DNA from: Escherichia coli
GTDB taxonomy: Bacteria > Pseudomonadota > Gammaproteobacteria > Enterobacterales > Enterobacteriaceae
DNA length: 64,000 nt
Strand: one strand, 5' to 3'
Assembly (NCBI RefSeq): GCF_024700885.2
Contig: NZ_CP117014.1
Shown here: in pieces, positions 6,493 through 61,136 of the stretch
Position numbering within the stretch: position 1 is the stretch's first letter
Layout: each line of letters starts with the position of its first letter
The notes under the pieces: model-generated
Seen by the model: the letters and a program-made list of their open reading frames with translations, nothing else
What the model was told of the DNA's origin: nothing
Databases searched by the model: none
Position numbers and translations under genes: made by a program

Positions 6493-8190
6493 TCACTTTT
6501 TTTCGTTAACCTTGCCTGTCAGCATGTCGATAGCACCTTCTTTGGCGCGAGTCAGACGCAGGCGGGTGAAGTAGTTTTCACCGTTGCGAGGATGTACTTC
6601 GTTGATGGCACTGCCCCAGAGAGTGGTACGGTTAACGAGAGACGGATTGGTTTCGTGCACGTAAGGGATTGCTGGGACTGCATCACCAGCAATCAGACCG
6701 GCTTTACCGATGCCTTCGCCACGCCCATAGAAGAAGATGTCATCCAGCCCGAAGTCATATCCCTGTGCCTGGAATTGCTCACAGACAGGTTGCGGCACTT
6801 CGTAAATACGAATCGTGCCAAACAGGGTGCCGATGTACTGTACATACGGCGACTGAACGTAACCTGGTGCGATCTGGAAGTGCTGTGGAGGCAGAGAGCG
6901 CAGGAAGTTCGCGGCGTCACCACCAGCAAAGCCGCCACGAATACCCGTTGTCAGGGTACGATTTGCCATTTCTTGAGACAGAGCGTTTACTACGTGACGC
7001 AGGAGGCCGACCCAGGACTCATAGTTTTGAGCTTCCGGCAGAGCCACATCAAATTCACGACCATAAACGGTATGGAATACCAGGGTGCGCAGACGCATGA
7101 TGTCGGTTTCATGGGAGATCCAGTTACGCATCGCGGAGAACTGAAGTGCCGCTAATTCAAGGCCGTGCTCACGGCTTAAATCGGATGCGGACATTACCGT
7201 GTGTTCGGAAGCAATTACGTACTGGGATGGACGAACTTCGTACTTACGCATAGCCTGGTTGATCACAGGAATCAGGCTTGGATTGCGCTCGATGTTAATT
7301 TCGACCTGAACAGCAATTTCAGTACCTTCTGGCGGAGCCTGGGTAAATGTAATGTCAATGACACCAGTGTCATAGGCAACTTTGGCAGTCGCTGAGAAAG
7401 CTTTACCTTTGCTGTCTTTAGCATTGAAATAAAGGTTGCCATCGCCGTCGTCAACTTTGGACGGTTTGCGGTTGATCAGCAGTTTGTTATAACCAGCGCG
7501 AAGCGGGCAGGATTGTCCCTCAAAATTTTGGATGTCGAACTGGAAGGTTTTGGTGCTGCCATCCCCTTTAGTGGAAAGGGTATACAGGCGCTTCATTTGA
7601 GAATAAACACCAGCTGACTGCATATTCAGTTCGTCACCTTGTTTGAAGGTGCCGAATTTTGTGCCTGCTACGTTGACCAGTTCATAAATATTTGACTCGT
7701 CACGATCACAAGGAACAAAAGTACAGGCATCACTGGTAGCAGCGCCCAGAGAGGCAGGCAGAATTAGAGCAGCATATTGAGCAACTTTCATTACGCCGTC
7801 AGAGCTACGCATTGATTGCGCGACAGACTCAAACATTGCCTTACCCGTGCCTTCGTGGGTATCACTGGCACATTCAGTCATCAGGCGCTCAAGAGCCATG
7901 TGTGCGTTCGCCAGGATGTCACTTGCCGGGTAATGACCATGTTGACGTTTATACTCATGCAGAGACATAGCCCACCCACCAGTGATCTGACGAGCGACCT
8001 CTGGATTTACGCCTTCAAACATAGGCACTTTCTGGATTGCTTTATCCAGGTTTTCCATCATTACTGCCTGGTCAGCAATCATGTTGCCTGCTGCATCGGT
8101 GGTCGGATCGACGGTCATAGCCATGACGCTTGCCGCCCGATTCATAATCTCGCGCTCGCGATCACGAGCTGGCTGAATGTTTTTATTCAC
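6493..8190 (-). CDS. Large virion structural protein (565 aa), possibly major head protein
   Basis: First and largest gene of the morphogenesis operon; dispersed motif copy upstream (8317-8335); P1 gp23-like by position only. Confidence 0.35.
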   Translation of the reverse strand: MNKNIQPARDREREIMNRAASVMAMTVDPTTDAAGNMIADQAVMMENLDKAIQKVPMFEGVNPEVARQITGGWAMSLHEYKRQHGHYPASDILANAHMALERLMTECASDTHEGTGKAMFESVAQSMRSSDGVMKVAQYAALILPASLGAATSDACTFVPCDRDESNIYELVNVAGTKFGTFKQGDELNMQSAGVYSQMKRLYTLSTKGDGSTKTFQFDIQNFEGQSCPLRAGYNKLLINRKPSKVDDGDGNLYFNAKDSKGKAFSATAKVAYDTGVIDITFTQAPPEGTEIAVQVEINIERNPSLIPVINQAMRKYEVRPSQYVIASEHTVMSASDLSREHGLELAALQFSAMRNWISHETDIMRLRTLVFHTVYGREFDVALPEAQNYESWVGLLRHVVNALSQEMANRTLTTGIRGGFAGGDAANFLRSLPPQHFQIAPGYVQSPYVQYIGTLFGTIRIYEVPQPVCEQFQAQGYDFGLDDIFFYGRGEGIGKAGLIAGDAVPAIPYVHETNPSLVNRTTLWGSAINEVHPRNGENYFTRLRLTRAKEGAIDMLTGKVNEKK

Positions 8191-8348
8191 GGTTAAGCCC
8201 TAAATTCGGGCGCGGCGTGAAGGTTCTTTTGACGGGATAACAATACCTACTTTGTGATTTAGTCAATAGGTTTAGTAAAATAAAATCTATTAACACTCAT
8301 GTTGTTATGTGATTTAATTTTAGTTTTCTAACACAAATCATTAGAGTT

Positions 8349-8741
8349 ATGGCGTATCGAATCTTTGTTTCGTATAAAAATGGCGCTAAGAGCCACTCTC
8401 TGAACACAACAAGTCGCTTTCTTGTTGAGGCGCAGTTGGCATCAATTCTTGCCGAAAGTGAGATACTCTCGCTCGCTGAACGGATCGTTATCCAGTTTTC
8501 TGGTAGAGATATACTCAATGTCCCCGCTCTCACCCCGGCCTCCGAAGTTATGGAATCAATTAAATGGCCTGTATGCGGATGTCCTGCCAGGGTTGAAGAA
8601 CCGGTAACTGCAACGCTCTACATGCCGAAAGCTGTAAGAGATTGGCTTGCTATGGTTGGCAATGGGAAAGTCAGTGCTGGACTTCGCAAGTTAATTGAAA
8701 TGGCAGATATTCCTGAGTTAAAAAATGCATGGCGACAATGA
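8349..8741 (+). CDS. Hypothetical protein (130 aa)
   Basis: ORF divergent from structural operon; motif copy immediately upstream. Confidence 0.4.
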   Translation: MAYRIFVSYKNGAKSHSLNTTSRFLVEAQLASILAESEILSLAERIVIQFSGRDILNVPALTPASEVMESIKWPVCGCPARVEEPVTATLYMPKAVRDWLAMVGNGKVSAGLRKLIEMADIPELKNAWRQ

Positions 8742-8757
8742 GTAAACAAGGGACAAA

Positions 8758-9216
8758 ATGAGTCACGTTAACCCATCAAAAACACAATATCGCTTAATGC
8801 TGGCGATCGCGTCAGCTATACCAACCAGCCTGAATCCCCCGGCAGGCTATCCCACTGTTGTTGATGATTGTTTTCAGTATTACGGAGAAGACATCCTGAG
8901 CCAGTCAAAAGCGCTCAAGCAGTTATGTAAGGCAGGTATTCTTCACTGTATCGGAGATCCGGACGATTTTGTTGTTATGCTGGCGGATCGTGACTCTTTT
9001 CTACTGTCCTGGAAAGCTGGTGCGCGCGAAGCACGTTTGGGGAATGGTATTGGTTACATAGACTATAGCGATTGTCCGCTGGCATTTGCTGGTGGATATA
9101 TGCATTGGCATGAGCGAAATAGGGGCCGTCAGCGTCAGTATCGTTTGAGTGACTTTAACGTCTGTCACGGTTTCGAAGAAGCTGACAGCCAGGACATCTG
9201 GCTTCAGGAGCCTTGA
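8758..9216 (+). CDS. Hypothetical protein (152 aa)
   Basis: ORF 16 nt downstream of previous gene, same strand. Confidence 0.4.
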   Translation: MSHVNPSKTQYRLMLAIASAIPTSLNPPAGYPTVVDDCFQYYGEDILSQSKALKQLCKAGILHCIGDPDDFVVMLADRDSFLLSWKAGAREARLGNGIGYIDYSDCPLAFAGGYMHWHERNRGRQRQYRLSDFNVCHGFEEADSQDIWLQEP

Positions 9217-18807: not shown

Positions 18808-18841
18808 TGTGTTAGAAAATACGCGTTAATTATCTAACACA
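18808..18841. promoter_or_regulatory. Palindromic operator-like site TGTGTTAGAAAA-N-TTATCTAACACA in the rdgC promoter region
   Basis: GTTAGA-N16-TCTAAC read directly; same architecture at 32812-32829 and 35654-35681. Confidence 0.45.
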
Positions 18842-30221: not shown

Positions 30222-31148
30222 TTAACTAACAATCCAGTCCATAGCAATAACATCCTCTGGAGCTAAATCAATAGCATGGATTTTCCCGTCACGGATGGTG
30301 CGCCAGTGCTTTCGTGATCCACCTTCGGGCCACACCCATATACCTTCAGGCCAGGAAGAACGACGACACACTGTTGCGTATCCAGTCCTGATCTTCTCTC
30401 TGACGGTATGTAGTGACAGATTATCCTTTGGGCTTTCAGGCACAGGATGGTGGATTGCCTGAAACATCCCCATCTTTGGATGATACCAGCGTTTATTGCG
30501 TGGTTCTGCCTCCGACATCACCTGCTTAAAGGCTTTCCGGAAGGGGGCCAGGGCCACAATGGAGCGTCGCGCAAGCAAACCCTCTGGAGTTAAAAACTCA
30601 TGCGTATCGGTGGGAATCCGGAAAGCGTTAACCAGGTTGCGACATTTGGCTTCAGTCAGGCCACATTTCGCCGCCAGCTGGCGGTAGCCAATGTAACCTT
30701 CCGGCATATTGCCTTTCTTGATTTGCTCGAGTGTTTCAGCGACCATCGATACTTGTGCTGATACCTCGGCTACCTGGGCATTTACGGCGTTGATCCGGCG
30801 TTCATGCTCAAGATGCATTTGCGCCATTTCAGCCAGAATTTCGGCTTTTGATTTTAACTGTACCCGGGCATTCTCCAGTTCGCGCCAGCGGTCCACCAGC
30901 CGGGCGGTGAATTCGGGAGAGAGCTGCGCGACGACGACAATACTATCGCGCTTGCCTTGCTCGCCTTCGAAGACGTAATAGCTCGCCGGGCGGCCTGCGG
31001 TGGGCTTTTCCTCAATTTGAGGAAAAGATATTACGCCCCGTTCCGCCAGGTGTTCAATGGTGCGTTTAACGTTATCAGGGCGCTTACCTACCAGTTCCGC
31101 GATCTCAATGCTGGTCATTGTCGCTTTTTGAGAGATGGACAGATTCAT
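30222..31148 (-). CDS. Rha-family phage regulatory protein / antirepressor-like
   Basis: N-terminal ...TSIEIAELVGKRPDNVKRTIEHL... resembles the Rha domain; 308 aa. Confidence 0.55.
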   Translation of the reverse strand: MNLSISQKATMTSIEIAELVGKRPDNVKRTIEHLAERGVISFPQIEEKPTAGRPASYYVFEGEQGKRDSIVVVAQLSPEFTARLVDRWRELENARVQLKSKAEILAEMAQMHLEHERRINAVNAQVAEVSAQVSMVAETLEQIKKGNMPEGYIGYRQLAAKCGLTEAKCRNLVNAFRIPTDTHEFLTPEGLLARRSIVALAPFRKAFKQVMSEAEPRNKRWYHPKMGMFQAIHHPVPESPKDNLSLHTVREKIRTGYATVCRRSSWPEGIWVWPEGGSRKHWRTIRDGKIHAIDLAPEDVIAMDWIVS

Positions 31149-31363: not shown

Positions 31364-31548
31364 ATTGGCAGCCTCCTTTGACTAAGTTAAGGAGCTACCG
31401 CGTGAGGTTCCAATCTCAATGGCGGTAGCACTGACTGGGTTGGAACTACCGGCGTCAAAGGGAACCGGCCTGCCTTTCGGCAGCCCAGCCAGCACTACCA
31501 TTGATCTCTGAGCTAAACGCTACGTATGGCTGTGCGATGGCATGACAC

Positions 31549-31569
31549 AAAAAAGACGCTTTCGGCGTC
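31549..31569 (-). terminator. Rho-independent terminator (minus strand)
   Basis: GACGC-tttcg-GCGTC with A6 on plus = U6 on minus. Confidence 0.5.
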
Positions 31570-31674
31570 TGTGTCGCCTTTGACATTATCCGGGGTTCCA
31601 ATCCCGGCACCCGTTTTTCTAAGGTGCCGTAGAAATATACCCCACGATAATGCTAGGGCGCAACAGTCAGTATT

Positions 31675-31842: not shown

Positions 31843-32173
31843 TTTGACACCCCCGACGCGAGTAAAGAATGCAGATTATCGCGTGAGTGGTGGACGACGA
31901 GTGATGGGAAAAGACTGTAGTTGTTCATAGTGTAGTGACTCCTTGCTTTCGGAGCCGCCATCGACTGTTCCACGGTCTGGTGGCGGCGCAATAAAGGCTG
32001 GAACACCGTGAGTCAACGGGGGCTTTTCAGCCACCTATATTGCACCGCCATAGGTATGACGGCGGCAATAATACGAAAAACTAAACAGTTTGTCTCAAAA
32101 AGTTGACCGGTGTGCCAATCGGTAGTGAATGTACATCGGAGAAATTTACAATTCAACTTAAAATGTTAGAAAA

Positions 32174-32752
32174 CTAATTTATCGATTCAATCGCCATCTG
32201 ATACAACGTCATTTCATCGGCATTGTGCCGTATGAAATCTGCTTTTCCGCCTATTTTTCCATCAGCATGAACAGGGACCAGCCAGGGATATTGTTCTCGG
32301 ACCTCGGCTGGCGCTGCGTACTGGTGGTGCCATTTACACAAAGGGAGGACATATTTATGCGCGTTCTCTGCCGTTCTCCCGAAGATATGGTGCAGGGATA
32401 CCACTGGGCTATGTTGCCCGTGAATATGGCAGGCAATGCAGGGGAGAGTACCTATAGCGGTCTGTATCCGGCGTTCATCGGCTGTGAGTGATCTGCCTTT
32501 CAGGCCGCGTGACGTGCGTGTTTTTTTGGGCGGAGCGGATACAGCTTTATCTTTTCTCCGCTGTTCATATTGCTTTGCTTTTTCATTTTTCTTTTGCCGA
32601 TATTCAGGCGATGCGGCCTTTTCTCTCGCTCGCTGCTGCTGGCGTTGAGCTTGTTGAAGGCGCTTTGCCCTTTGTTCCTCTCGCCAGGCCGGGTCAGCCA
32701 ATTTTTGCATGGCTTTTTGTCTCTGTTTCTCCCAATAACTCTGTTTCTGCAT
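32174..32752 (-). CDS. HNH-family endonuclease with long basic disordered N-terminus (P1 Ref-like)
   Basis: ~90 aa K/R/Q-rich N-terminus then CIACHIHG...LHHIF...PLCKWHHQ zinc/HNH motif; motif copies on both flanks. Confidence 0.5.
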   Translation of the reverse strand: MQKQSYWEKQRQKAMQKLADPAWREEQRAKRLQQAQRQQQRAREKAASPEYRQKKNEKAKQYEQRRKDKAVSAPPKKTRTSRGLKGRSLTADERRIQTAIGTLPCIACHIHGQHSPVVSLHHIFGRTAENAHKYVLPLCKWHHQYAAPAEVREQYPWLVPVHADGKIGGKADFIRHNADEMTLYQMAIESIN

Positions 32753-32811: not shown

Positions 32812-32829
32812 CAAAATTGATTTTCTAAC
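32812..32829. promoter_or_regulatory. Palindromic operator-like site GTTAGA-N16-TCTAAC upstream of the Ref-like gene
   Basis: GGTTAGATATTCAAAATTGATTTTCTAACACA read directly. Confidence 0.45.
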
Positions 32830-32869
32830 ACAAAACATTAATATCATCACTGATAAATGTTTGGAGGAC

Positions 32870-35653: not shown

Positions 35654-35681
35654 GTTAGAACATTGATTTTAGTTTTCTAAC
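35654..35681. promoter_or_regulatory. Palindromic operator-like site GTTAGA-N16-TCTAAC
   Basis: CGTTAGAACATTGATTTTAGTTTTCTAACATA read directly, ~45 bp upstream of gene at 35725. Confidence 0.45.
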
Positions 35682-35724
35682 ATATTATTTTACCGATCGG
35701 AACAAAACAGAGTCGGTATGCATT

Positions 35725-43574: not shown

Positions 43575-43594
43575 TACTGTATAAATGAACAGTA
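43575..43594. promoter_or_regulatory. LexA (SOS) box upstream of humD
   Basis: TACTGTATAAATGAACAGTA = CTGT-N8-ACAG consensus, 20 bp upstream of ATG. Confidence 0.7.
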
Positions 43595-43613: not shown

Positions 43614-44003
43614 ATGGGCTTCCCTTCTCCTGCGGCGGACTATGTTGAAAGCCGAATTTCTCTTGATCAGCAACTAATCAGGCATCCATCAGCGACATAC
43701 TTCATGCGGGCGGCAGACAGCCATCACCGTGAGGGAATATTGCAGGGTGCTTTGCTGGTGGTTGATTCTTCGCTTACTCCAGTTGATGGTTCGCTGCTTG
43801 TGTGCGCTATGGAGGGAGAATATCGCGTAAAAAGATACCGGAAGTATCCGCGCCAGCACCTGGAGGATTTAAGCACCGGGAAGAAAGAGGCGTTACCAGT
43901 AGATGACGATGGTTACACGGGTAGTAATGCTGTTTTTGGTGTGATCACCCACATTATCAATGACGCCAGGGGCGGTGAATTTGATGATAGTCCTGCTATA
44001 TGA
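43614..44003 (+). CDS. humD: UmuD-prime-like S24 peptidase-fold protein (P1 HumD-like)
   Basis: 129 aa aligning with UmuD C-terminal domain (...LLVVDSS...GEYRVKRY...FGVITHII); SOS box upstream. Confidence 0.65.
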   Translation: MGFPSPAADYVESRISLDQQLIRHPSATYFMRAADSHHREGILQGALLVVDSSLTPVDGSLLVCAMEGEYRVKRYRKYPRQHLEDLSTGKKEALPVDDDGYTGSNAVFGVITHIINDARGGEFDDSPAI

Positions 44004-45305: not shown

Positions 45306-46400
45306 TCACTCAATGATTTTTTCTGCTGTCAGCCAGCTAATTTCTTGCCTGTCTTTCGGCGGTTTTAGCATGTGGGCGTATTCAGCGACATTCTCCCACG
45401 GAATTGTTTTTGCCCACTCAACGATAGCATTGTGATCTGCAGTGAAGAGTGGAATGGTGTGCGATTTCAACCATTCTAATGTCGTGACGCCATGTTTTTT
45501 GGCGTGGTGCTGCGCATGATGCCGGGCTATCACTCGTAATGGTATTGTCCATTCACTACCATCAGGCATCGAAAAGCGCATTGTCTTCGGCATATCTGAT
45601 TCAAGAACAGCCTCCCTAATACCAGGGAACTCACCAAGAATCATACGACGATAGTCATCACTATTTCGCCCGCCATACCTTTCGGCAAAATGATCAAGAT
45701 ATTCTTGGGTAATAAATGGTGAATCCTCCGCACTCAGCTTAATGGCTTTATATACACCACTCGGATTATCTTCAGCTAAAGCACGTCCATGATGTGAATC
45801 ATAAAAAAAGCCTATTTCCTCTGGTGACGGAATTGAAGTGAGCAATATGCGTGAATCACCACTAGTCATGCTTGCCCACACAATGCTGTATGCCCGATCG
45901 CTGATATGTGCGGAATCCACAATAATGAATAAAAGATGGTCGGCGTAGTGACCTGCAATGCTATCTTCATAGTTAAGGCGGAAGTTACAAAAGCACATTC
46001 CCCAAAATTCATTGAACATCAGACCGCTATCACCGACCTTAAAATACTCAATGATAAAAGGTTGTTTTTTCAGCAATGCCTCCCAACATTGCCACACATA
46101 TGCAACAATTCCTCTTTTGCAAACATTTGATTTTGGATAAACAATTACTGTCCGGGAATCAGGATACATAATCGTATAAAGGGTACTAATAACAGCAAGC
46201 ACTTGCGGTCGTCCGATCCCATACGGAGTGGTGACAGTAGCTTTTGCATTATTGGGCTGTATAGCTTCAACAATTTGTTGTTGCTGGTGGCTTAAATCAA
46301 TATCAAACAATTCTTTTGCTGCCAGTACCCAATTGTCTTTATATTTCTCCACCAGCGACAGCCAGCGCGGATCTTTATAAATATTGCTCTTAGTCGCCAT
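45306..46400 (-). CDS. PacB-like terminase large-subunit paralog with degenerate Walker motifs (365 aa)
   Basis: Collinear with PacB N-terminal half (SHQQQQI, DSHHGRA, ESPF, YGGR) but Walker A GHGTGKSS replaced by PYGIGRPQ and Walker B LDEAS by VDSAH; start ATG 46400. Confidence 0.5.
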   Translation of the reverse strand: MATKSNIYKDPRWLSLVEKYKDNWVLAAKELFDIDLSHQQQQIVEAIQPNNAKATVTTPYGIGRPQVLAVISTLYTIMYPDSRTVIVYPKSNVCKRGIVAYVWQCWEALLKKQPFIIEYFKVGDSGLMFNEFWGMCFCNFRLNYEDSIAGHYADHLLFIIVDSAHISDRAYSIVWASMTSGDSRILLTSIPSPEEIGFFYDSHHGRALAEDNPSGVYKAIKLSAEDSPFITQEYLDHFAERYGGRNSDDYRRMILGEFPGIREAVLESDMPKTMRFSMPDGSEWTIPLRVIARHHAQHHAKKHGVTTLEWLKSHTIPLFTADHNAIVEWAKTIPWENVAEYAHMLKPPKDRQEISWLTAEKIIE

Positions 46401-47157
46401 CTGCCACTTCCTTAACTTCTTCTTTGGCCTGTTCTGCAATCGCCGCACGGCATTTCGCCCTGGCTGTAGCGATTGCTTCAGCTCGCACATCGTCTGGAAT
46501 CGTTGACGTGATATACATATCCAGTTCTTCGGCACGGAATACTGTTTGGTCCAGATATTCGCGTAGCATCCAGGTAAATTCGAAATCACACGCGATAATC
46601 TCTGCGCTACCTTCTGCACCATTTGGGAAATGAATAAATGCCTGTTTAGCCAAACCGATAACACGACATGCGGTTGCCAAAACAGCGACAACTAGGTTTA
46701 CATTTTCACACGCTACGGGCTGGTTAACGCCGGAGATTACTCCATTTAACTGTCGGTTATATGGAAGGTAGTTTGAGATGCGTTCTACGCGCCATGTGCC
46801 AGTCAGGCTGCCATTTTTAAATATAATTGGTGTAACGGATAGCCCAAGCTCGCGTATAAGTCGTTGCGCTATAGCAGGATCATTAAACAGGTCTAATGCT
46901 ACACATTCGAAAGACTGCGCAAGGGCAAACAGTTCTTCCAGAGAGTAGTCTTTGCCCCTGGCGGTGATGTAACGACGAACGCCGCTGTCTGCATCACTCC
47001 ATATAGCTACGCCATGCTCTTCATTCAGCTCTTCATTAAAGCCGAGATACGTCATGATAGTGCGTTCAATCGTGTCAAACGGCAGTGACATGTCGGCGTT
47101 AACAGCCACCAGCAGGCCATTACGCAAGCGGTATTGAATTGTTTTAGTGCTTTCCAT
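46390..47157 (-). CDS. Hypothetical protein (255 aa)
   Basis: ORF overlapping paralog start. Confidence 0.4.
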   Translation of the reverse strand: MESTKTIQYRLRNGLLVAVNADMSLPFDTIERTIMTYLGFNEELNEEHGVAIWSDADSGVRRYITARGKDYSLEELFALAQSFECVALDLFNDPAIAQRLIRELGLSVTPIIFKNGSLTGTWRVERISNYLPYNRQLNGVISGVNQPVACENVNLVVAVLATACRVIGLAKQAFIHFPNGAEGSAEIIACDFEFTWMLREYLDQTVFRAEELDMYITSTIPDDVRAEAIATARAKCRAAIAEQAKEEVKEVADGD

Positions 47158-48927: not shown

Positions 48928-49000
48928 AGCACCCTCCTAAATAGGCGAGGGTACTTTACAGCAAAGGCGTTAATCTAAAAAGATGTGTTAGAAATTTAAT

Positions 49001-50029
49001 TTACGAATCCATCAGGCGGCTATTAGCCCCCACAGACACGCCGCCACGGCGAAGATACCGCATAAGTGTTTCCGGTTTCTTCCAGGTTCCTTCCTGCATG
49101 ATCTCCACCATAGACACCTGCTTTTCAGCCATATCAATAGCGGCCCCGACGCGTGCACTATGCCCGGTCCACGTCCGGTATCTTCCTTTGTTTGGCGTAG
49201 CATCTCTTTTATTCAGCAACACCCAGGCGTCGCTGAATATTTTCTCCATTGCAGGTGCAGTAAGGGGCGTTGTCGTGATCCTGGCCTTATTGCTACGGTG
49301 TATCGGCGGGAACAGCACTGCGTCAGGATGTTCGCGAAGCCCGGAAACATCCAGCCAGTCATTCAGCACAGCGGTAGTGCGACGGGAAAGCACCTTATCA
49401 AGCCCGGCGGCGGTCGTTATTGTCTTCGTGTGTGAAATATGTAGCGTGACAGTGTCACCTGTTTGATCCAGATCTCCTACACGAATACGCGAGATTTCCG
49501 ACATACGCATCAGCGTATTGTATGCAACAAAGAGAAAAGCCCGGTTGCGCAGGTCCACCAGCCGTTCTGACCTGGACAACAGGACGTCGAGCAGTTTCAG
49601 ATCGTCCCACCGAAGCGGTATAGCCTGGCCTGTTCGTTCGCCTTTTTCAGTTGCCGCTTCGCGCCGGATGCGCCGCATAGCCAGAGAAACACTTTTATCA
49701 TCCGAAAGTGGCGGAAGGCCACAATGCGAAAGCAGCATATTCAGCATGGCGTAGTGCTTATCAATGGTGGTCGAAGCCAGATCGGCATCATGCAGCTGAA
49801 GAAAATACTCGCGGGCCATTTCTGGTGAGATCGGAAACCAGGCAAGCTGGCGAGCGTGACACCAGCGCGCCCATGAATGAAACACCAACCGGAGGTCGCG
49901 CAGAGTATTCGGCGCATAAGCCCCCTGGTCATTCATGAACCGCATAAAGTTTTCTGCAGCCTCCTGGTACTCTTTGCCAATGTTGCGCAGAAAACCACCG
50001 GAGCTGCCAGAGATAATTAATTCACTCAT
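49001..50029 (-). CDS. Cre-like tyrosine site-specific recombinase
   Basis: 342 aa collinear with P1 Cre (…WTGHSARVGAA.DMA……IMQ.G.W……Y.R), conserved R/H-x-x-R/W/Y; lox-like site ~150 bp upstream. Confidence 0.8.
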   Translation of the reverse strand: MSELIISGSSGGFLRNIGKEYQEAAENFMRFMNDQGAYAPNTLRDLRLVFHSWARWCHARQLAWFPISPEMAREYFLQLHDADLASTTIDKHYAMLNMLLSHCGLPPLSDDKSVSLAMRRIRREAATEKGERTGQAIPLRWDDLKLLDVLLSRSERLVDLRNRAFLFVAYNTLMRMSEISRIRVGDLDQTGDTVTLHISHTKTITTAAGLDKVLSRRTTAVLNDWLDVSGLREHPDAVLFPPIHRSNKARITTTPLTAPAMEKIFSDAWVLLNKRDATPNKGRYRTWTGHSARVGAAIDMAEKQVSMVEIMQEGTWKKPETLMRYLRRGGVSVGANSRLMDS

Positions 50030-50180
50030 GAAACTATTTAACCTCTATATACAGATAACGCTACGCGAAAAATATAAAAATGACAGGGTAGCTATAAGTT
50101 AATTTTCAAGATTCAAGCCTTTGATTCGAGGCGCGTATTTTCAGTGATGTCAATACTGATCATCTACCCATAATTATAGC

Positions 50181-50214
50181 CTAACTTTAAATAATGCCAA
50201 TTATTTAAAGTTAT
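50181..50214. other. lox-like recombination site: 13-bp inverted arms with 8-bp asymmetric spacer
   Basis: CTAACTTTAAATA-ATGCCAAT-TATTTAAAGTTAT; outer AACTT/AAGTTAT shared with loxP. Confidence 0.6.
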
Positions 50215-50395
50215 AAAATGCCGATTTTTTTTAATCCATCATAGATTGATGATGACCAGTAACACGTTGCCTTCATGGTCTTTAATTTGCGAAGTGTGGT
50301 TTCTACGGTTGGTTTTCTAAAATTGATGACAAAAAATCACAGTTCGATCCTTTACTCACTCTGTTATTCGACATAAATTTGTCATAGTAATTTTA

Positions 50396-50411
50396 TGTTA
50401 GAAAACTAAAT
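50396..50411 (+). promoter_or_regulatory. Dispersed motif copy TGTTAGAAAACTAAAT in promoter of gene at 50424
   Basis: Read directly, ~13 bp upstream of ATG. Confidence 0.45.
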
Positions 50412-50423
50412 CGAGTAGGAATA

Positions 50424-51461
50424 ATGAGTAAGAAGTCGATCGAGAAAGAGTACAAACGGTTCCTGCAAACCGCTGAACGGTGGAAAGAGCTGGTGGTCGC
50501 AAACTCTGTTTTCCATGATACCAGTTATGCTGGCGAGGAATTCCGCCATGTTGCATTAACGCATGACCAAAACATATTAGAAGAAGCTGAAAAATGTCTT
50601 GCTGAATGGAAAGCCTTCGTTGACATGTGCCGCGATGCCGACGGCAAAGCGTCGAACATTGTTGAGTCTGTATATTCTCCGATCCCATTCATCATTGAGG
50701 ACACCAATCAAAGCACGCATGTCGTTGTGCAAAGCGCTACAACAACACGTACATTTACACGTGAACAATTGCTAAAAAAATACGACAAAATCATAAAGAA
50801 AAGCCTTAAAAATAGGGTTTTTTCTCAAATCGTAGGTGATCTTGAAGAAGAACAGCGCTTCTTTGAAGCTGAGCCTGAAGGCGAGATCTACCGGGCGCGT
50901 AAAGAGGCATATACAGATGTTGTGCTGACAACAAACATCGAAGGCAGCAATGCCCTTTCTCGCTTTAGAGTTGGCGCACATGGTGCATTGGTTTTCGCAA
51001 GACTACCGAAGACAACGATCCCCGTTGTCAATAATGTTGGTGAACGCCGGAGCATTACAATTTATTCTGGCGTCGAATCGGTACCTTGCAGCCTTCTCGG
51101 CGATTTTAACTTATATCGTGTTCGTGACCTGGAAAAACACCAGCCAAGCTATGTTGCGAAGTCGTACATCTTAAGGAACATCGATATTCGCAATGAAAGC
51201 CTTAAGCAGAAATCCGCTAAGATGCTGGAGGATGCCGATCCGGCTATTCGCCATATCATTGAGCGTAAGATACGTACATCACGTGAAGCAATGGCAAGGC
51301 TGGATAAAATGGATCTGGAATTGTTAGACGTAATGATGGCCTCTGGAGACGACCTGACCGGCATTAAACTGAATGAAGCTCGTAAAAAATACGGCAAAGC
51401 AATCGAAGAACGTTACGGATACACATTCCCCCAAACGCAGTACGCCGCGAAGCTCTGGTAA
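50424..51461 (+). CDS. Hypothetical protein in the c1-equivalent position (345 aa); candidate regulator
   Basis: Convergent with pacB and adjacent to lox-like site, as for c1 in P1; motif copy in own promoter; no recognisable P1 C1 similarity. Confidence 0.4.
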   Translation: MSKKSIEKEYKRFLQTAERWKELVVANSVFHDTSYAGEEFRHVALTHDQNILEEAEKCLAEWKAFVDMCRDADGKASNIVESVYSPIPFIIEDTNQSTHVVVQSATTTRTFTREQLLKKYDKIIKKSLKNRVFSQIVGDLEEEQRFFEAEPEGEIYRARKEAYTDVVLTTNIEGSNALSRFRVGAHGALVFARLPKTTIPVVNNVGERRSITIYSGVESVPCSLLGDFNLYRVRDLEKHQPSYVAKSYILRNIDIRNESLKQKSAKMLEDADPAIRHIIERKIRTSREAMARLDKMDLELLDVMMASGDDLTGIKLNEARKKYGKAIEERYGYTFPQTQYAAKLW

Positions 51462-51468
51462 TCACAAC

Positions 51469-51490
51469 CGGCCCCGCATCGCGGGGCTTT
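51469..51490. terminator. Bidirectional hairpin terminator between convergent genes
   Basis: GCCCCGC-atc-GCGGGGC followed by TTTATATAT. Confidence 0.55.
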
Positions 51491-52997
51491 ATATATCCAG
51501 ATCCGGCATTTCGATATCCGCCAGAACCTGATCTCGGAAAGTTGCCATTTCGGCACCAATATCTTCATTAGCAGGCACATAGTCCACCAGCATAGTGAAG
51601 CAGTAGGTATCCCATCGGTCAGGCGATTTGATGTTTAGCTTTTGCCGCATGTGCTCTTTGCGCATCATCGCCATTTTCCCTTCTTCATTCAGTAAAAAGG
51701 GGATTTTTGACGCTTGCTCTGCCGTTTTAGGGTCACTGTCTATCCGCATACGCCCTGACTTTATGGCATCACGCGCCATAATGTTTGCGTAGGCACGCTG
51801 ATTAACAAATCGCTCCCTGTCTTTGTTCGCAAACATGGGTTTTCCCCACCGAATACGTACCGGGTTCGCACCACGACGCACCAACTGCGCACACGTATCA
51901 GAACCAAAACCATCAGCATCAACCGCGATTGTTATATTCGGGTATTTTTCCGGCGTACATTCGTTATATATGAAGTCAGCAAAGGCCAATGGGTCCATAG
52001 TGCCAGGCATCTCCATTACCTTAAAGTTAACAACGCGCCGCTTATCCCTGTGACCTGATACCTTGCAGATGTTGAGGACCGACTTATCTCGCCCATTACC
52101 AACGTCAGCCGTTGCCACCCATCCCCAGTTTTTCTCCAACAACACCTTGCGGCGAGCAGAGCGATCGCATTCATCACGACCAAGCAAATAGCCGTTAATT
52201 TCTCGTGGGAACTGACCAAGCACCTTGACCATGTACTCAATAGAATCGCGCCCACCATATTCCAGAAGCTTCTCCTTGATGAATTGTGGTGTGACGAACG
52301 GTGATTCTTCCGAGTTAAGAACAATTGCTGTCCAGATCCCTTTCGGGTTGTCTGGGGTTTTTGCTCGAGAATGGTGCGAATCGTAGAAATAACCACTTGG
52401 CCTTGTTGGCTGGGATAGCATCAACATCCGGTTATCTTCTTCAGTAAGAGCACCGGTCATTACGCCGATCGCCTTATCAGATATACCAGATGCTTCATCC
52501 AGAATTAGAAGCAAATGTGCCGCGTGTTCCCCCGCCAGCGCTTCTTCGTTGCCGAGTCGATAACCTTTGCAGAGAACTTCCCAAATCCCCTTACGGGAGC
52601 GCTCATAAAACATGGTGTCAGAGAGGACAAAATAGGTCTGCAACCACCCATGACGCTTAACTGCATTCGCCCAATACTGTTTAACGTATTTGAATACGCC
52701 TGTTTTTACCTGGCCTATCTTGTTAGCAACAATGATGACACGGGCATCGGGGAACAGGATCATAAAAATCAACAGCAACATCGCGGTAAGGGACGACTTC
52801 CCCGTTCCGTGTCCGGACGTGACGGTCGTCCTACTCCCCGTTTCCTGCACTGACTGAATGATCTGCTGCTGCTGGTGGGAGGGGAACATCCCAAAAATAT
52901 CGACTACAGCCTGGGTAAAGTTGTAGCGGTATTTGATTACCATATCGCGCCAGCGTGGATCGCTGGTGACGCATTTAATCTTGCGCCCGCCAGCCAT
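51489..52997 (-). CDS. pacB: Terminase large subunit (PacB-like)
   Basis: Walker A GHGTGKSS, Walker B LLLILDEASG; 502 aa; start overlaps pacA stop. Confidence 0.8.
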   Translation of the reverse strand: MAGGRKIKCVTSDPRWRDMVIKYRYNFTQAVVDIFGMFPSHQQQQIIQSVQETGSRTTVTSGHGTGKSSLTAMLLLIFMILFPDARVIIVANKIGQVKTGVFKYVKQYWANAVKRHGWLQTYFVLSDTMFYERSRKGIWEVLCKGYRLGNEEALAGEHAAHLLLILDEASGISDKAIGVMTGALTEEDNRMLMLSQPTRPSGYFYDSHHSRAKTPDNPKGIWTAIVLNSEESPFVTPQFIKEKLLEYGGRDSIEYMVKVLGQFPREINGYLLGRDECDRSARRKVLLEKNWGWVATADVGNGRDKSVLNICKVSGHRDKRRVVNFKVMEMPGTMDPLAFADFIYNECTPEKYPNITIAVDADGFGSDTCAQLVRRGANPVRIRWGKPMFANKDRERFVNQRAYANIMARDAIKSGRMRIDSDPKTAEQASKIPFLLNEEGKMAMMRKEHMRQKLNIKSPDRWDTYCFTMLVDYVPANEDIGAEMATFRDQVLADIEMPDLDI

Positions 52998-54361
52998 TAA
53001 TCATCCTCCGGCGGTTCTATCGCGATATCATCATCTCCGGCGTCATACCCTGCATCAGATGCATCATAATCACCGTAAATTTCAGCCGTTGCCGAAGGGT
53101 CAATATCCAGCTCTTCGTCGTTGGCCTCGAATTCTCCAGCTTTACGCTCGCCATTGCGGTCGTAATCTCCGCACCCCAATTCTTCAACAATGGTTGCCAC
53201 ATCCGCCCGGCGCTCTGCCAGCCATTGCGGATGGTTAGCCTGAAGCGTTGCAAACTCCCTTGCCTCTTTGTCCAGCTGTTCATCATCAACATCATTGACG
53301 TCAGAAACAGGTGGTTCGAGAAGAGTGATAGCTTTCGCCGCGCGCGCCGCGAGGATAGCCGGGACGCTGACACCCTGGCGCTCGATGTATTCAGCAACAC
53401 CGATATCATCCAGTTCCTCGCGCTCACGCATACGTATAGCGGCGGCGATAACTCTGGCTGCGCGTGCGTCAGCGCCAATGCGATATTCAATCTCTTTGCC
53501 ACGCTGTTCGGCCTGTAGGCGTGCTAATTCGAGTTTTTCTCTGGCCTCAGCCTCTTTGAATGCTTGCTGGCGAGCGCTCTGACGAAGCTTTTCATCCCCC
53601 TGTCGCAGCTTTTGTTCGGACTGATATATAGCTGCCAACCTACTGATAAAATCATTCATGTAGTAGGCCGCGTCACTGATTAGACCGAGAAGGCGCTGCC
53701 CAGGGTGCATTCCTTCTGGCTCTTTATCGCCCAAGGCGTCTATTTCCGCCTGTAGACGTTCGGCCTCCTGATCAACAATGCTTTGATACTGAAGTGCGCG
53801 CTCTTGCGCCATTTGAATTGCTAACCGCAGGTGTTCTTCTGCGCCGTTCTTCATCATATCGCGAGCCACATTCGTAGTTGGCAATGTGGCACGCTGCACA
53901 GCACCGTCAGGGATCATTGCAGAAGATCCCTCAATTTTTGGGGCGTTTTTATCTTCTTCGGGGATCATTTTCGCCATTTTTTCGCGCAATGATCTCCTGA
54001 CAGATTCTTTTATCTCATTGTTATTATTTGAATTATTTTCATGATCCGAAGTTTTCTTTCTCGGCATACTTCGGAAAGAACCTGCGCCCTGCGAATTGTC
54101 AATTTCTGTAAATTTTGTTTTTTCTGCACCCTCTTCCAGCTTTTTTGTTGCTCTTCCCGCCCGTTTTTTTTCAGGTGATTTGGTGCTTTTTTTTGTTGTC
54201 TTTACCTGCGACCGCACCTCATTTTTTTTCATATTGAGATGCTTTCTGGCTGTATTGAAGCTAAGGCCATGCTCCTCACAGTATTCCTTTACAGTGATCC
54301 CTTTTTCTTCACGCAACGCTATAAAGCGGGCGCGGTGCTCCTCCCAATTAACCAGACTCAT
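52997..54361 (-). CDS. pacA: Terminase small subunit (PacA-like) with N-terminal HTH
   Basis: N-terminal ...KEYCEEHGLSFNTARKHL HTH; acidic C-terminus; internal GATC cluster. Confidence 0.7.
   Translation of the reverse strand: MSLVNWEEHRARFIALREEKGITVKEYCEEHGLSFNTARKHLNMKKNEVRSQVKTTKKSTKSPEKKRAGRATKKLEEGAEKTKFTEIDNSQGAGSFRSMPRKKTSDHENNSNNNNEIKESVRRSLREKMAKMIPEEDKNAPKIEGSSAMIPDGAVQRATLPTTNVARDMMKNGAEEHLRLAIQMAQERALQYQSIVDQEAERLQAEIDALGDKEPEGMHPGQRLLGLISDAAYYMNDFISRLAAIYQSEQKLRQGDEKLRQSARQQAFKEAEAREKLELARLQAEQRGKEIEYRIGADARAARVIAAAIRMREREELDDIGVAEYIERQGVSVPAILAARAAKAITLLEPPVSDVNDVDDEQLDKEAREFATLQANHPQWLAERRADVATIVEELGCGDYDRNGERKAGEFEANDEELDIDPSATAEIYGDYDASDAGYDAGDDDIAIEPPEDD
53912..54046. other. 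Candidate pac site: cluster of five GATC (Dam) sites within pacA
   Basis: GATC at 53912, 53925, 53963, 53991, 54043 (~0.5 expected by chance); GGGATCATT duplicated. Confidence 0.4.
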
Positions 54362-54750
54362 AAAGCAACACCACGCTTTTTAACGGCGGCATTCCACAGC
54401 TTATTCGCCATGTCCACCAGCTCTCGTTGCTCTTTTCGCGCCTGTTCGACTGATTTCCTGCTACAGTTTTTAACCAGTAAACTGCCATATTCAGGGGTTC
54501 GCCCACGCACCTTGAACTGATATCCGTTCAGGCCATGCAACCAGTATTTTCGTGGGTAAACACGATCATCAAGCTCACAGATTGCCCTGCTTGAACGAAC
54601 AAAATGACGAATGATGTTAGTTACACTTACTCGTGAAACATGGAGATGAGGGTATTTTTCTTTGGCGAGAGTGGTAATTTCAGTGACTGTCAGATAGCAG
54701 TCAGCCCTGATCATGATATCCGCAATTTCTGCGCTGCTGATTTGTTCCAT
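54358..54750 (-). CDS. Small protein immediately upstream of pacA (Lpa-position gene; putative late activator)
   Basis: 130 aa, 4-nt overlap with pacA start; assignment by synteny with P1 lpa only. Confidence 0.4.
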   Translation of the reverse strand: MEQISSAEIADIMIRADCYLTVTEITTLAKEKYPHLHVSRVSVTNIIRHFVRSSRAICELDDRVYPRKYWLHGLNGYQFKVRGRTPEYGSLLVKNCSRKSVEQARKEQRELVDMANKLWNAAVKKRGVAL

Positions 54751-54858
54751 TAATCCCCCGGGCAGGAAATGACCGAGGGGATGATAATGAGAATGTTAAA
54801 ACTGTATAGACTGGTAAAAAGATGAATGTATTAGAAAATTAATACTAAATATCTAATG

Positions 54859-56278: not shown

Positions 56279-56354
56279 TGGTGGCCCCTACCGGACTTGA
56301 ACCGGTGACCGTGCGATTATGAGTCGCCCGCTCTAACCACTGAGCTAAAGGGCC
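56279..56354 (-). tRNA. tRNA with CAU anticodon (Ile2/Met-type)
   Basis: Reverse complement gives 76-nt cloverleaf ending CCA, anticodon loop CTCATAA; very similar to E. coli ileX from memory. Confidence 0.8.
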
Positions 56355-56783
56355 AGATTACTGTTAATTACGCTTACGCTTTTTGCCAGAACCGCGTAAG
56401 GCTTTTGCCGCTTGCTCTACCCCGTATGCAACCACCAGCAGAAACAATAATGTCCACTCCGGGTTTTTATCGGCAAACGCCCAAAAATCCATCACTTGCA
56501 GCCACCTTTTAAGACAAAACGCCATTGCTGTTAGGTTGCGGTGCCGGGCGCCTCCCGGTGACGTTAACCAGTTAACAATTAACGCCGGATCACTTATGGA
56601 TTCTCGTTACGCCAGTAAAAAGACCACCTTTACTGTTTTAACTGTTCCGCGTGCGCTTAGCCGCATTCACCGCAATGGTAAGAGCATTTGGCTGACTGGG
56701 CGGCGATGACGCCTGTACGCATTTGGTGATCCGGTTCTGCTTCCGGCATTCGCTTAATTAGCCAAATACCCTTAATGTTGCAC

Positions 56784-56870
56784 TGGCGGAGAGTAATGGA
56801 ATCGAACCATCATCGCTTGCGCAATGGGACGGTTTTCAAGACCGCTTGAGCACCATGCTCCCTACTCTCC
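56784..56870 (-). tRNA. tRNA-Ser (UGA), type II with long variable arm
   Basis: 87 nt, acceptor GGAGAGT/ACTCTCC, anticodon stem GCGGT/ACCGT, loop CTTGAAA, T-loop TTCGATT, 3' GCCA. Confidence 0.7.
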
Positions 56871-57324
56871 CGTTATTGTGGCGACCGGTGCTGATCTCCG
56901 GCTTGCGGTTATTTCAGACTCTCACGGGCGTTTAATTGCCCCGCCGAACAGCTCTTTTCCGCAATAGCTGCAATGTCTTTCGCGCATCAGCCTGCGCATT
57001 CACCACAATGTTGAGAACACTGGTTGTCACGCTGCAACGCAACATTTATTCGTAGATTGGGATATGACCCCGTTACGCCAGTGTTCTCAACGTTGTAGTG
57101 CCGGTTACGGTTCCGGCCAGACCTCTTCCTCAACGGGGTGTTCTCCATACGGACTACCGTTTATTGGTCGTTCCTGCGGTTTATGTTGTGAAGCCAGATG
57201 CTTATCTTCTGGTTGCTTCAAAGAGCTGCACTTCATCACAACGGTAAGAGCATTTATGGCTCGCATCGCGGGAAAAAGCCCACGGTAGAGAGTCGAACTC
57301 TACAAATGCTCTTACCTGTTGTGT

Positions 57325-57400
57325 TGGTGCCGGTTAACGGGATCGAACCGCTGACCATTCGCTTACAAAGCGACTGCTCTACCAACTGAGCTAAACCGGC
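57325..57400 (-). tRNA. tRNA-Thr (UGU)
   Basis: 76 nt, acceptor GCCGGTT/AACCGGC, D-arm GCTCAGTTGGTAGAGC, loop TTTGTAA, T-loop TTCGATC, CCA. Confidence 0.8.
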
Positions 57401-57404
57401 AATT

Positions 57405-57491
57405 TGGTGGGGAGTGATGGAGTCGAACCACCCGAGTCGCAATGACAGTAGATTTACAGTCTACCCCGCTACCCCTACGGACTAACTCCCC
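57405..57491 (-). tRNA. tRNA-Tyr (GUA), type II
   Basis: 87 nt, acceptor GGGGAGT/ACTCCCC, anticodon stem GTAGA/TCTAC, loop CTGTAAA, CCA. Confidence 0.75.
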
Positions 57492-57496
57492 TAAAT

Positions 57497-57573
57497 TGGC
57501 GATGGTGGGTGGATTCGAACCACCTACCGAAAGCTTAGAAGGCTGCTGTTCTATCCTACTGAGCTACACCATC
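57497..57573 (-). tRNA. tRNA-Arg (UCU)-like
   Basis: 77 nt, acceptor GATGGTG/CACCATC, loop CTTCTAA as in E. coli argU, T-arm GGTGG-TTCGAAT-CCACC, CCA; one mismatch in anticodon stem. Confidence 0.6.
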
Positions 57574-58808
57574 ACTTGCCGGGTACGTCTCCGGCGAGGG
57601 CTTCCACCTCCGTATGCTTTTCGGCGCACCGCGCCCTGGCTGCAATTCGGTAACAGGGGATGCACAACCCTGGCTTCCAGCGTGATTAGCGCCTTCAGCA
57701 TGACGGGATATACCCGTTACAAGAAGTTCTCCCAGGATGCCATTAAGCAATGGCTGTTACGCGGGAAGGACGCAACAGGTAAGGGCGCTGACCAGAAAGA
57801 CCTGACCCTTCTCATTCATCTGGTTAATCACACCAGCGCCCTTGCCTGTTATGCCTCCCCGTTCCCTAATACACAGACGGGGACACTCTGCGGTCGATTT
57901 TTTTGACGGGGGACGACTCATACCCCGTGGCGTCTGGCTTCTTAGGCCGCTACCATCATCAGATCATCGTTTGCATTTACTTTAATGGTCAGTTTCTAAA
58001 CCGCCGCAAAGTCGCTAACCATGACGAAAACCCTAAAAAAGCCCACCCGAAGATGGGCAAATACGCTACATCTCACACAAGAAAGAAGCCGACTGCCTGA
58101 GCTGGATTCACTTTCAAATGCCCGCTGAAAGGGATCACAAGTCGGCTTCTTTCTTGATGCGGCACTCTCTCCGCCCGTCACCGCTCTGTCTCGGTTGTCG
58201 CGTTTGCCACGCCAGCCGTAACGAGGTTTAAAGTCTTTACACGTTTCCATCACTCGACTGCCGTCTGTGGCTGTTCGTTGCAGCGGGGGTGCCTCCCCCT
58301 GGGGATATCCCCGGCCTTACCCCATTCTTTCAAGACACAATGCAAGGCCACATCCGCATAGGTGCATTACCGCAACATTAAGGAGACTCAGGGCAAAAGG
58401 TAACCGCCACAAAAATCCCTATGCCTCCTTAATGTTGAAGATGTGCATTGATGATTAGATGCAGCATGTACCGTTACTCTCTGCCGGACCATCATCAATG
58501 AACACCTTAAAAAGACCTTCCGTGGCTCAACATGTATTGTCGTTTACTCCGCAAAGTGCTCTCTCTGAAACCACTTTCCGCACTAAACCTGCTGAACTTT
58601 GGCCTGCACGGTGCCAAAGCGTGCTCTTGCATTACTATACATTTCTAACACTTTAATTTGTTAAATGCTGGTGGGCGAACAATAACCAATAAGTGACTAT
58701 CAAGCCCAGCAAGCGAAACGTGGGTACCGCCCACCAGCAAGGAAAATTCTATGTTAAGTTATCTTCACAATCAATACATTCGAATTGTGATTTTAGATTT
58801 CTAACACA

Positions 58809-60017: not shown

Positions 60018-60130
60018 TGCTATTCCCGTTACTTTGTTAAATTATTTTTCTAACATATTTTATTAGTTTGATGACAGTATCGAAAGATGCAATAAACAAA
60101 AAACCCGCTAATTGGCGGGTTTTTATGCAA

Positions 60131-60641: not shown

Positions 60642-61136
60642 TTAATCAAGACAAACATACTCCGTGATAGCTTTTATGGCTTCAGCGGCACTGCGCGCCT
60701 CAAAGCAGTAGTAACCGGCTTCTGTGAGGCGAGTCATCCAGACGAGTTGTTCGGGAGTCAGGCGATTTCTCCCATGTTTCATCTCAATGCGCATTCCGTG
60801 GTATCCCCCACAAGCAAGGTCTATAGAAAGATCGGGATATCCCTTCTTTTGGCCCTCTGCCACCATTTTTATTGCCGTCCTTATGCCTCGCAGGCCACCG
60901 TTTGGAGTGGCGTGAGTATGCTCATACACATAACGCATATTGCGATACATCCAGTCCAGGACGCGAACCTGCTCGTAATGCTCATGGTTCCTTTTGATTA
61001 GATCTGGGTTTTTCTCCAGTTCTCTAAGAGCTGCGGCATGTGGGGATGTTTCAGAATATTCACTGCGACGCCTTCTCTTTCGCGCTATTTTTCTAACACA
61101 CCCATTGATAGTAAATATGCGAAATAATAACAACAA
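60642..61136 (-). CDS. VRR-NUC domain nuclease (start uncertain)
   Basis: ...PNGG...KGYPDL...GGYHG.RIEMK.G.N.LTPEQ..W...L...GY pattern; motif copy at 61083-61100 lies inside the 5' end of the track ORF. Confidence 0.55.
   Translation of the reverse strand: MLLLFRIFTINGCVRKIARKRRRRSEYSETSPHAAALRELEKNPDLIKRNHEHYEQVRVLDWMYRNMRYVYEHTHATPNGGLRGIRTAIKMVAEGQKKGYPDLSIDLACGGYHGMRIEMKHGRNRLTPEQLVWMTRLTEAGYYCFEARSAAEAIKAITEYVCLD

Follow-up and report, generated by a model that had tools for sequence, protein, structure and literature searches.

A 64,000-nucleotide stretch of the Escherichia coli contig NZ_CP117014.1 (assembly GCF_024700885.2), here called the window and used as the frame for all coordinates given below, carries a gene for a 345-amino-acid protein that is very probably C1, the master repressor of lytic functions of a D6-like phage-plasmid and a distant orthologue of the C1 repressors of phages P1 and P7. 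A preliminary description of this gene had placed a repressor at the position that c1 occupies in P1, had found no recognisable similarity to P1 C1, and had raised the possibility of a different repressor family. Its observations turn out to be largely correct, and its interpretation was right about the role of the protein and wrong about its family. The gene itself is already known, being c1 of phage D6, a gene sequenced and named in 2004 and re-annotated in 2018. We describe here how its product is related to P1 C1, the dispersed DNA motif at which it would act, and the fold that is predicted for it.

The c1 open reading frame (ORF) lies exactly where the preliminary description had put it, starts with ATG and is preceded by an AGGA Shine-Dalgarno sequence 4–7 nt 5' of that start. 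A tblastn search of a phage collection matched three records, all of them Escherichia phage D6, with 99.7% identity over all 345 residues. The D6 record AY753669 labels the gene [quoted passage not shown] (protein AAV84948.1), and the D6_1 record MF356679 calls it "prophage repressor, similar to P1 gene C1" (protein ASR76322.1); the GenBank annotation thus agrees with the repressor that had been postulated at this position. The window protein heads, with 100% identity, a cluster whose 326 sequences carry the name "phage repressor protein". The gene and its control region are carried together by 111 sequenced plasmids ~90 kb in size (93 from E. coli, 16 from Salmonella and 2 from Shigella), and among the matches listed most plasmid records label c1 "hypothetical protein". 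The DNA flanking c1 is 98.6% identical to D6 and holds the same neighbours (dre, rox, pacB, pacA and lpa). The window is nevertheless a D6-like mosaic and not D6 itself; most blocks are 97–99% identical, several segments have been replaced, and the set of tRNA genes appears to differ.

The relationship to P1 C1 is distant and can be followed by several routes. A BLASTP alignment with P1 C1 (from NC_005856) is co-linear over 268 positions at 21% identity (E = 1e-8), and the window protein (E = 4.9e-170) and P1 C1 (E = 2.6e-140) each match the profile phrog_1678 along their entire length. The NCBIfam model NF041318 (phage_rep_C1) gives a weak, co-linear match to residues 7–240 (E = 6e-6), and the precomputed Pfam annotation of the window protein and its relatives is PF27008, Phage_P7_repressor_C1. 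Our own Pfam-A scan of the protein and all 52 members of its family gave nothing significant with a release that predates PF27008. A phmmer search that covered 1.84 billion representative proteins exhaustively returned only 60 clusters, whose identities grade without a break from 44% to 21%. A repressor of a family unrelated to P1 C1, brought to the c1 position by non-orthologous replacement, would account for the low identity, for the lack of a match in the Pfam-A release used and a score far below the NCBIfam equivalog cut-off, for a length that exceeds that of P1 C1 by 62 residues and includes an extra C-terminal module, and for the absence of the P1 operator from the window. Such a replacement would not, however, be expected to leave a co-linear BLASTP alignment, a phrog_1678 match of full length in both proteins, a recorded PF27008 assignment or a graded series of intermediates, and a fold search of AFDB50 with the predicted structure retrieves entries named "Primary repressor of lytic functions" and "Repressor protein C1" at E ~1e-9. 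We consider a non-homologous repressor very improbable, and the sequence comparisons refute it. Because BLASTP, phrog_1678, PF27008 and the intermediates tie the protein to P1 C1, the suggestion of a different family is unsupported, and the reported lack of recognisable C1 similarity has to be withdrawn. By these comparisons the window C1 is a divergent homologue that forms a deep branch of the P1 C1 family.

An alignment of 52 sequences that includes P1 C1 grades from D6-type to P1-type proteins and contains several conserved blocks as well as four invariant residues (R41, W62, P88 and R159). Two length classes are present in the family, one of ~345–380 amino acids (D6 type) and one of ~250–290 amino acids (P1 type). 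A C-terminal module is conserved in the long D6-type subfamily only, in a place where P1 C1 has a short basic tail. Helices in this part of the predicted model span residues 233–270, 273–307 and 316–342.

The gene order at the locus is also that of P1. The preliminary description had pointed to a P1-like placement of c1, next to a lox-like site and convergent with pacB, and all three statements hold; recombinase, lox or rox, c1 and then convergent pacB follow one another as in P1, c1 and pacB lie on opposite strands, and the lox-like neighbour is the 32-bp rox site of the Dre recombinase, 210 bp from the c1 ATG (coordinate 1 of D6 corresponds to window position 50198, within rox). This synteny, extended through pacA and lpa, is common to P1 and to relatives whose C1 is as little as 44% identical to the window protein. 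The terminator between c1 and pacB, which had been described as bidirectional, is a single hairpin within the 27 bp that separate the two stop codons. The hairpin is indeed there, but the terminator scan calls an intrinsic terminator on the c1 (+) strand only, because a T-tract is found on that side and the pacB-sense side has none.

A motif, TGTTAGAAAAYTAA, derived from k-mers of the region upstream of c1, recurs throughout the window. Counting matches with no more than 2 mismatches, there are 12 copies in the window versus an expectation of 1.14 from 100 dinucleotide-preserving shuffles, none of which contained more than 5. Since the shuffles preserve dinucleotides, the comparison takes AT-richness into account. 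Ten of the 12 copies fall outside ORFs of at least 100 amino acids, in sequence that makes up 15% of the window (P = 3.5e-7). The complete D6 genome contains 18 copies, and 13 of these lie 9–345 bp upstream of annotated start codons; the D6 genes behind them are c1, lpa, pmgS, icd/ant (twice), repL, the divergent capsid/orf52 region, hrdC-dmt (an adjacent inverted pair of copies), mat/simB, ref/orf88, pdcB and the orf117-dut operon. The informative part of the motif is ~16–17 nt long and not palindromic, with a D6-type consensus (T)GTGTTAGAAAAYTAA whose reverse complement is TTARTTTTCTAACAC.

Two of the copies bracket the control region of c1. The proximal one, TGTTAGAAAACTAA, ends 14 bp before the ATG, and the distal one, TTTTAGAAAACCAA on the opposite strand, lies 101 bp upstream of it in inverted orientation. 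The preliminary description had placed one copy in the c1 promoter and had taken it as a sign of autoregulation. Two inverted copies are in fact present, in an upstream control region that shows no sigma-70 consensus promoter, so that the copy stands and its location within a promoter does not; autoregulation through the motif agrees with this arrangement and may well occur. We compared the c1 locus with those of three relatives whose C1 is 89% (L009), 51% (L007) and 44% (L008) identical to the window protein. In each of them the c1 ribosome-binding site directly follows TGTTAGAAAA, and ~75–100 bp upstream there is a copy in inverted orientation, TTTTCTAA(A/C). When the 140 bp 5' of c1 are aligned among these relatives, TGTTAGAAAA is the sole unbroken run of invariant columns, a phylogenetic footprint that supports a function for this putative operator.

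P1 C1 reportedly binds 22 dispersed, asymmetric 17-bp operators with the consensus ATTGCTCTAATAAATTT and controls RepL and Lpa (PMC8546580); further P1 genes under its control are ref, dmt, kilA, ban and ssb (PMC4713147), and the P1 GenBank record annotates operators at lpa and at c1/coi. The P1 consensus has no match in the window at up to 3 mismatches, and P1 operators are evidently not the sites of D6-type C1. In the best register, the D6-type consensus, read as its reverse complement, agrees with the P1 operator at 11 of 17 positions, with the central TCTAA in common. The motif is found at the D6 counterparts of lpa, repL, ant, ref, dmt and c1, and the gene sets of P1 and D6 therefore overlap strongly. 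At lpa the resemblance extends to geometry, since the motif lies 78 bp from the ATG versus 70 bp for P1 Olpa and has the same orientation relative to the gene. D6-type C1 is thus like P1 and P7 C1 in ~260 homologous residues, in its position next to the recombination site and convergent with pacB, and in having many dispersed, asymmetric putative operators at lpa, repL, ant, ref, dmt and c1 that share a TCTAA core; it differs in its 21% identity, and it has diverged in operator specificity and in accessory parts, with an upstream region that lacks coi, imcA and imcB and an extra C-terminal module of ~80 amino acids.

It might be argued that the protein is C1 and that the motif is something else, either a promoter element or the site of another factor such as Lpa or a host nucleoid protein. 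Binding of C1 to the motif is deduced from sequence, the motif is AT-rich and sits in AT-rich intergenic DNA, some copies stand ahead of morphogenetic genes (pmgS and capsid/orf52) that in P1 are mostly late genes, and the core has remained constant although C1 has diverged to 44% identity. However, copies also stand ahead of lpa and c1, two genes for which no dependence on Lpa is expected, and AT-richness is controlled for by the shuffles. The motif agrees with P1 C1 operators in its TCTAA core, length class, asymmetry and gene set, and at lpa it has the place and orientation of P1 Olpa. A late-promoter identity was considered and rejected, as the motif bears no resemblance to the late-promoter element annotated at LPpac in P1, which consists of ATGTGACTT with a -10 hexamer behind it. 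We regard a site for some other factor as unlikely and favor the reading in which the motif is the putative operator of D6-type C1. In P1 itself, TGTTAGATAAAATT at 893–906, directly 5' of the lpa operator, is similar to an inverted form of the D6-type motif core TGTTAGA, a likeness that probably arose by chance, the DNA being AT-rich.

Several points weigh against the identification of the gene as a D6-type c1 that acts through this motif. The window protein scores only 25.9 bits against the equivalog cut-off of 500 in NF041318, where P1 C1 scores 607.5; it thus belongs to the family without being an equivalog of P1 C1, in keeping with the difference between their operators. A sigma-70 scan between rox and the c1 ATG found no consensus promoter, and the candidates picked by hand in this interval are all poor, so that an overlap of operator and promoter is hypothetical. 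Covariation of protein and site was looked for as a sign of specificity among the C1s that are 89, 51 and 44% identical and was not seen, since the core TGTTAGAAAA is unchanged among C1s of 44–100% identity; what was obtained is conservation. The 11 matches between the P1 and D6 operators are only suggestive, both being AT-rich and the alignment the best of ~20 registers. Finally, DNA binding, repression and immunity, as distinct from the observed homology, synteny and motif statistics, placement and conservation, are carried over to the window protein from the biology of P1 and are attributed to it by analogy.

The fold predicted for C1 is the one point that may be new. AlphaFold2, supplied with the family alignment, gave a confident model with a mean predicted local distance difference test (pLDDT) value of 93.1 and a predicted template modelling (pTM) score of 0.82. 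When this model was compared by Foldseek with the PDB, only four significant matches were returned, all of them Tus-Ter DNA complexes of E. coli Tus (PDB 1ECR, 4XR0), with E = 9e-7 to 5e-6, a probability of 1.00, ~275 aligned columns and 7–8% identity. The template modelling (TM) scores against Tus are modest, 0.33–0.50, and may reflect movement of the domains between the apo and the DNA-bound state. The model has the two alpha/beta domains and the interdomain beta strands that characterize the Tus fold. In AFDB50 the ranking begins with D6-type "phage repressor proteins", continues through uncharacterised family members to the P1-type C1 entries mentioned above, and then passes into a near-unbroken run of entries named "DNA replication terminus site-binding protein" at E = 2.5e-7 to 5e-6. 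Sequence comparison gives no such connection. Among PDB sequences, the protein and the family profile retrieved no relative and no Tus, an hhalign comparison of the C1 family with a Tus alignment gave a probability of 7% (the Tus alignment being shallow, with members 81–100% identical, since only close relatives were obtained among the best 120 matches of the Tus homologue search), and the Tus family profile PF05472 produced one weak match (E = 0.03) among the 52 members of the C1 family. From the model we claim a Tus-like fold and do not claim homology to Tus. That the whole P1/D6 C1 family (PF27008) is built on this fold, until now taken to be particular to the replication terminator, is a possibility to which we would give somewhat less than an even chance. 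We found no paper in the full-text literature that links Tus and C1; older P1 literature is thinly covered there, and the link may already be on record.

Tus binds its asymmetric site as a monomer, and P1 C1 was reportedly found by Dreiseikelmann and colleagues in 1988 to be a monomer in solution. If the C1 family does share the Tus fold, an oddity of P1 would be explained, namely that C1 has no helix-turn-helix and recognizes single asymmetric 17-bp sites, because C1 would clamp its DNA as Tus clamps Ter; confirmation of the fold would thus supply a mechanism for the recognition of asymmetric operators, as those of P1 C1 are known to be (PMC8546580). The narrowly distributed Tus would also be linked in evolution to the repressors of phage-plasmids, which might then be the source or a sibling of Tus. 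A Tus-like fold raises the question of whether C1 is mainly a polar replication-fork barrier, or a regulator of plasmid replication, and not a transcriptional repressor. Tus is the sole relative with a solved structure, the Tus family follows the C1 family in AFDB50, and the sites are asymmetric like Ter. Yet the homologous P1 C1 is a transcriptional repressor at 22 operators (PMC8546580, PMC4713147), and the D6-type sites are located in the control regions of genes, with the 13 of 18 D6 copies close to start codons. The orientations of the copies in the window and in D6 are mixed, with no two-armed fork-trap polarity, and membership of the Tus family is not seen at the level of sequence. Tus differs from D6-type C1 also in having no counterpart of the C-terminal helical module, and in its action, as Tus arrests forks and C1, by analogy with P1, would repress transcription at many sites. 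We think it extremely improbable that D6-type C1 is primarily a fork barrier, and return to its probable role as a repressor.

As a repressor, D6-type C1 would bind single, non-palindromic operators of ~16–17 bp through its predicted Tus-like core of ~265 residues. At scattered sites (12 or more in the window and 18 in D6) it would repress lpa, which encodes the activator of late genes, repL (in D6), ref and hrdC-dmt among other early functions, and it would also repress two c4-icd-ant antirepressor modules, pmgS, pdcB, the dut operon and c1 itself. The motif occupies many lytic control regions, and one protein could therefore shut off the lytic program in the plasmid prophage. Autoregulation of c1 would probably proceed through the two inverted sites that bracket its control region, possibly by looping as in P1. 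Candidate roles for the C-terminal module are oligomerisation for such looping, or docking of an antirepressor.

Relief of this repression should differ from that in P1, where C1 is a transcriptional repressor antagonised by Coi and Ant (PMC8546580, PMC4713147). Searches with tblastn for Coi, ImcA and ImcB gave no homologue in either D6 or the window (E > 0.7), and the 210 bp from rox to c1 contain no ORF. In a D6-like Salmonella plasmid, Lxc was not detected, and homologues of c4, icd and the antirepressor are present in two copies (PMC6799933). With no coi, imcA or imcB and apparently no Lxc, derepression is expected to come from the Ant module or modules held in check by c4. The window contains one immI-like module of this kind, with a C4 antisense RNA, an isrK-like RNA, icd and an Ant-family gene (Table 1). 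A coi-like route under SOS control is unsupported, as a search of the window showed no LexA box close to immC or immI. Its one perfect LexA-box core, CTGTATAAATGAACAG at 43577–43592, is directly upstream of humD (umuD'-like, 43614–44003).

Functionally, D6-type C1 would by analogy resemble repressors of the lambda CI and LexA type in maintaining the prophage and conferring immunity. Those proteins use palindromic half-sites clustered at one switch region, in contrast to the asymmetric, genome-scattered sites described here, and neither a helix-turn-helix nor an S24 peptidase domain was detected by Pfam in the window protein or in any of the 52 family members. The D6-type operator consensus provides a testable map of the D6-type lytic regulon and, equally, of heteroimmunity between P1-type and D6-type elements, and such phage-plasmids spread resistance genes in Enterobacteriaceae.

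Table 1. Features of the c1 locus, copies of the motif, and elements of the immI-like module in the window
Feature	Coordinates	Strand	Basis or remarks
c1, primary prophage repressor of D6-like phage-plasmid (very probable)	50424..51461	+	ORF, D6 identity, phrog_1678, PF27008, BLASTP with P1 C1
C1 N-terminal core, ~aa 1-265, common to P1 C1	50424..51218	+	Predicted Tus-like fold; presumed DNA-binding part
C1 C-terminal module, ~80 aa (~266-345)	51219..51458	+	Long helical hairpin and small helical bundle; alignment blocks, model
Putative operator, proximal to c1	50396..50409	+	
Putative operator, distal to c1, inverted	50309..50322	-	2 mismatches
dre, Cre-like tyrosine recombinase	49001..50029	-	ORF, profile match, D6 annotation
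rox, 32 bp, lox equivalent of D6 Dre recombinase	50182..50213	n/a	TAACTTTAAATAATGCCAATTATTTAAAGTTA; labelled rox in AY753669 and MF356679
GC-rich hairpin terminator between c1 and pacB stop codons	51470..51488	+	Terminator scan; 8-bp stem, 7 G-C pairs
pacB, large terminase subunit, convergent with c1	51489..52997	-	ORF, phrog_2/5902, D6 annotation
pacA	52997..54361		Follows pacB
lpa	54358..54750	-	Follows pacA
Motif copy upstream of lpa	54829..54842	+	Position and orientation as P1 Olpa/Op94
Motif copy upstream of orf117-orf116-dut operon	48986..48999	+	Directly 3' of dre
Motif copy heading leftward immI-like module	32164..32177	+	
Motif copy in divergent ref/orf88 intergenic region	32817..32830	-	64 bp upstream of ref
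Motif copy upstream of hrdC-dmt	18826..18839	-	29 bp upstream; adjacent inverted pair in D6
Motif copy upstream of pdcB-like HNH endonuclease gene	35669..35682	-	42 bp upstream
Motif copy in divergent major-capsid/orf52 intergenic region	8320..8333	-	
Motif copy upstream of pmgS	60042..60055	-	~25 bp upstream of ORF start (60017)
Motif copy directly downstream of pmgS	58793..58806	-	Right edge of 1.2-kb ORF-poor gap before tRNA genes
Motif copy within 5' end of pmgM ORF	61085..61098	-	Weaker (2 mismatches); may be chance
C4 antisense RNA	31418-31505	-	Rfam, 77 bits
isrK-like Hfq-binding RNA	within 31418-31627	-	Rfam, 62.7 bits; directly upstream of C4
Ant-family antirepressor gene	30222-31148		Downstream of C4 and isrK-like RNAs, with icd; immI-like module

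Around rox, the best sigma-70-like match of the region is TTGGCA-16-TATAAT (11/12) at 50173–50200 on the - strand; its -35 element lies in the rox spacer and it faces dre. A weaker match, ATGTCA-16-CATAAT at 50147–50174 on the + strand, is 5' of rox and directed through rox to c1.

The interval from pmgS to the tRNA cluster (57574–58808) has no convincing ORF, and the corresponding part of D6 (7850–9085) has no annotated gene. One motif copy lies at the right edge of this gap, at 58793, and in D6 there is a tandem pair (8913 and 9069); Rfam gave only sub-threshold, tmRNA-like matches in the gap (E ~0.02). A non-coding transcript under C1 control, or else the leader of the tRNA operon, could be encoded here. 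Next to it, at 56279–57573, ARAGORN and Rfam identify five tRNA genes (Met, Ser, Thr, Tyr and Arg) on the - strand, the same strand as the motif copy at 58793, and the D6 GenBank record gives three tRNAs (Ser, Thr and Asn) on the + strand at the equivalent place. Either the two elements carry different tRNA sets or the D6 record has the strand wrong.

A 461-amino-acid ORF at 45306–46691 (- strand) contains in its middle part a sequence, DPRWLSLVEKYKDNWVLAAKELFDIDLSHQQQQIVEAIQ, that resembles the N-terminal part of the large terminase subunit PacB (DPRWRDMVIKYRYNFTQAVVDIFGMFPSHQQQQIIQSVQ). This ORF has the appearance of a further terminase-like gene, located a few kb away from pacB in a region that aligns with D6 only partly.

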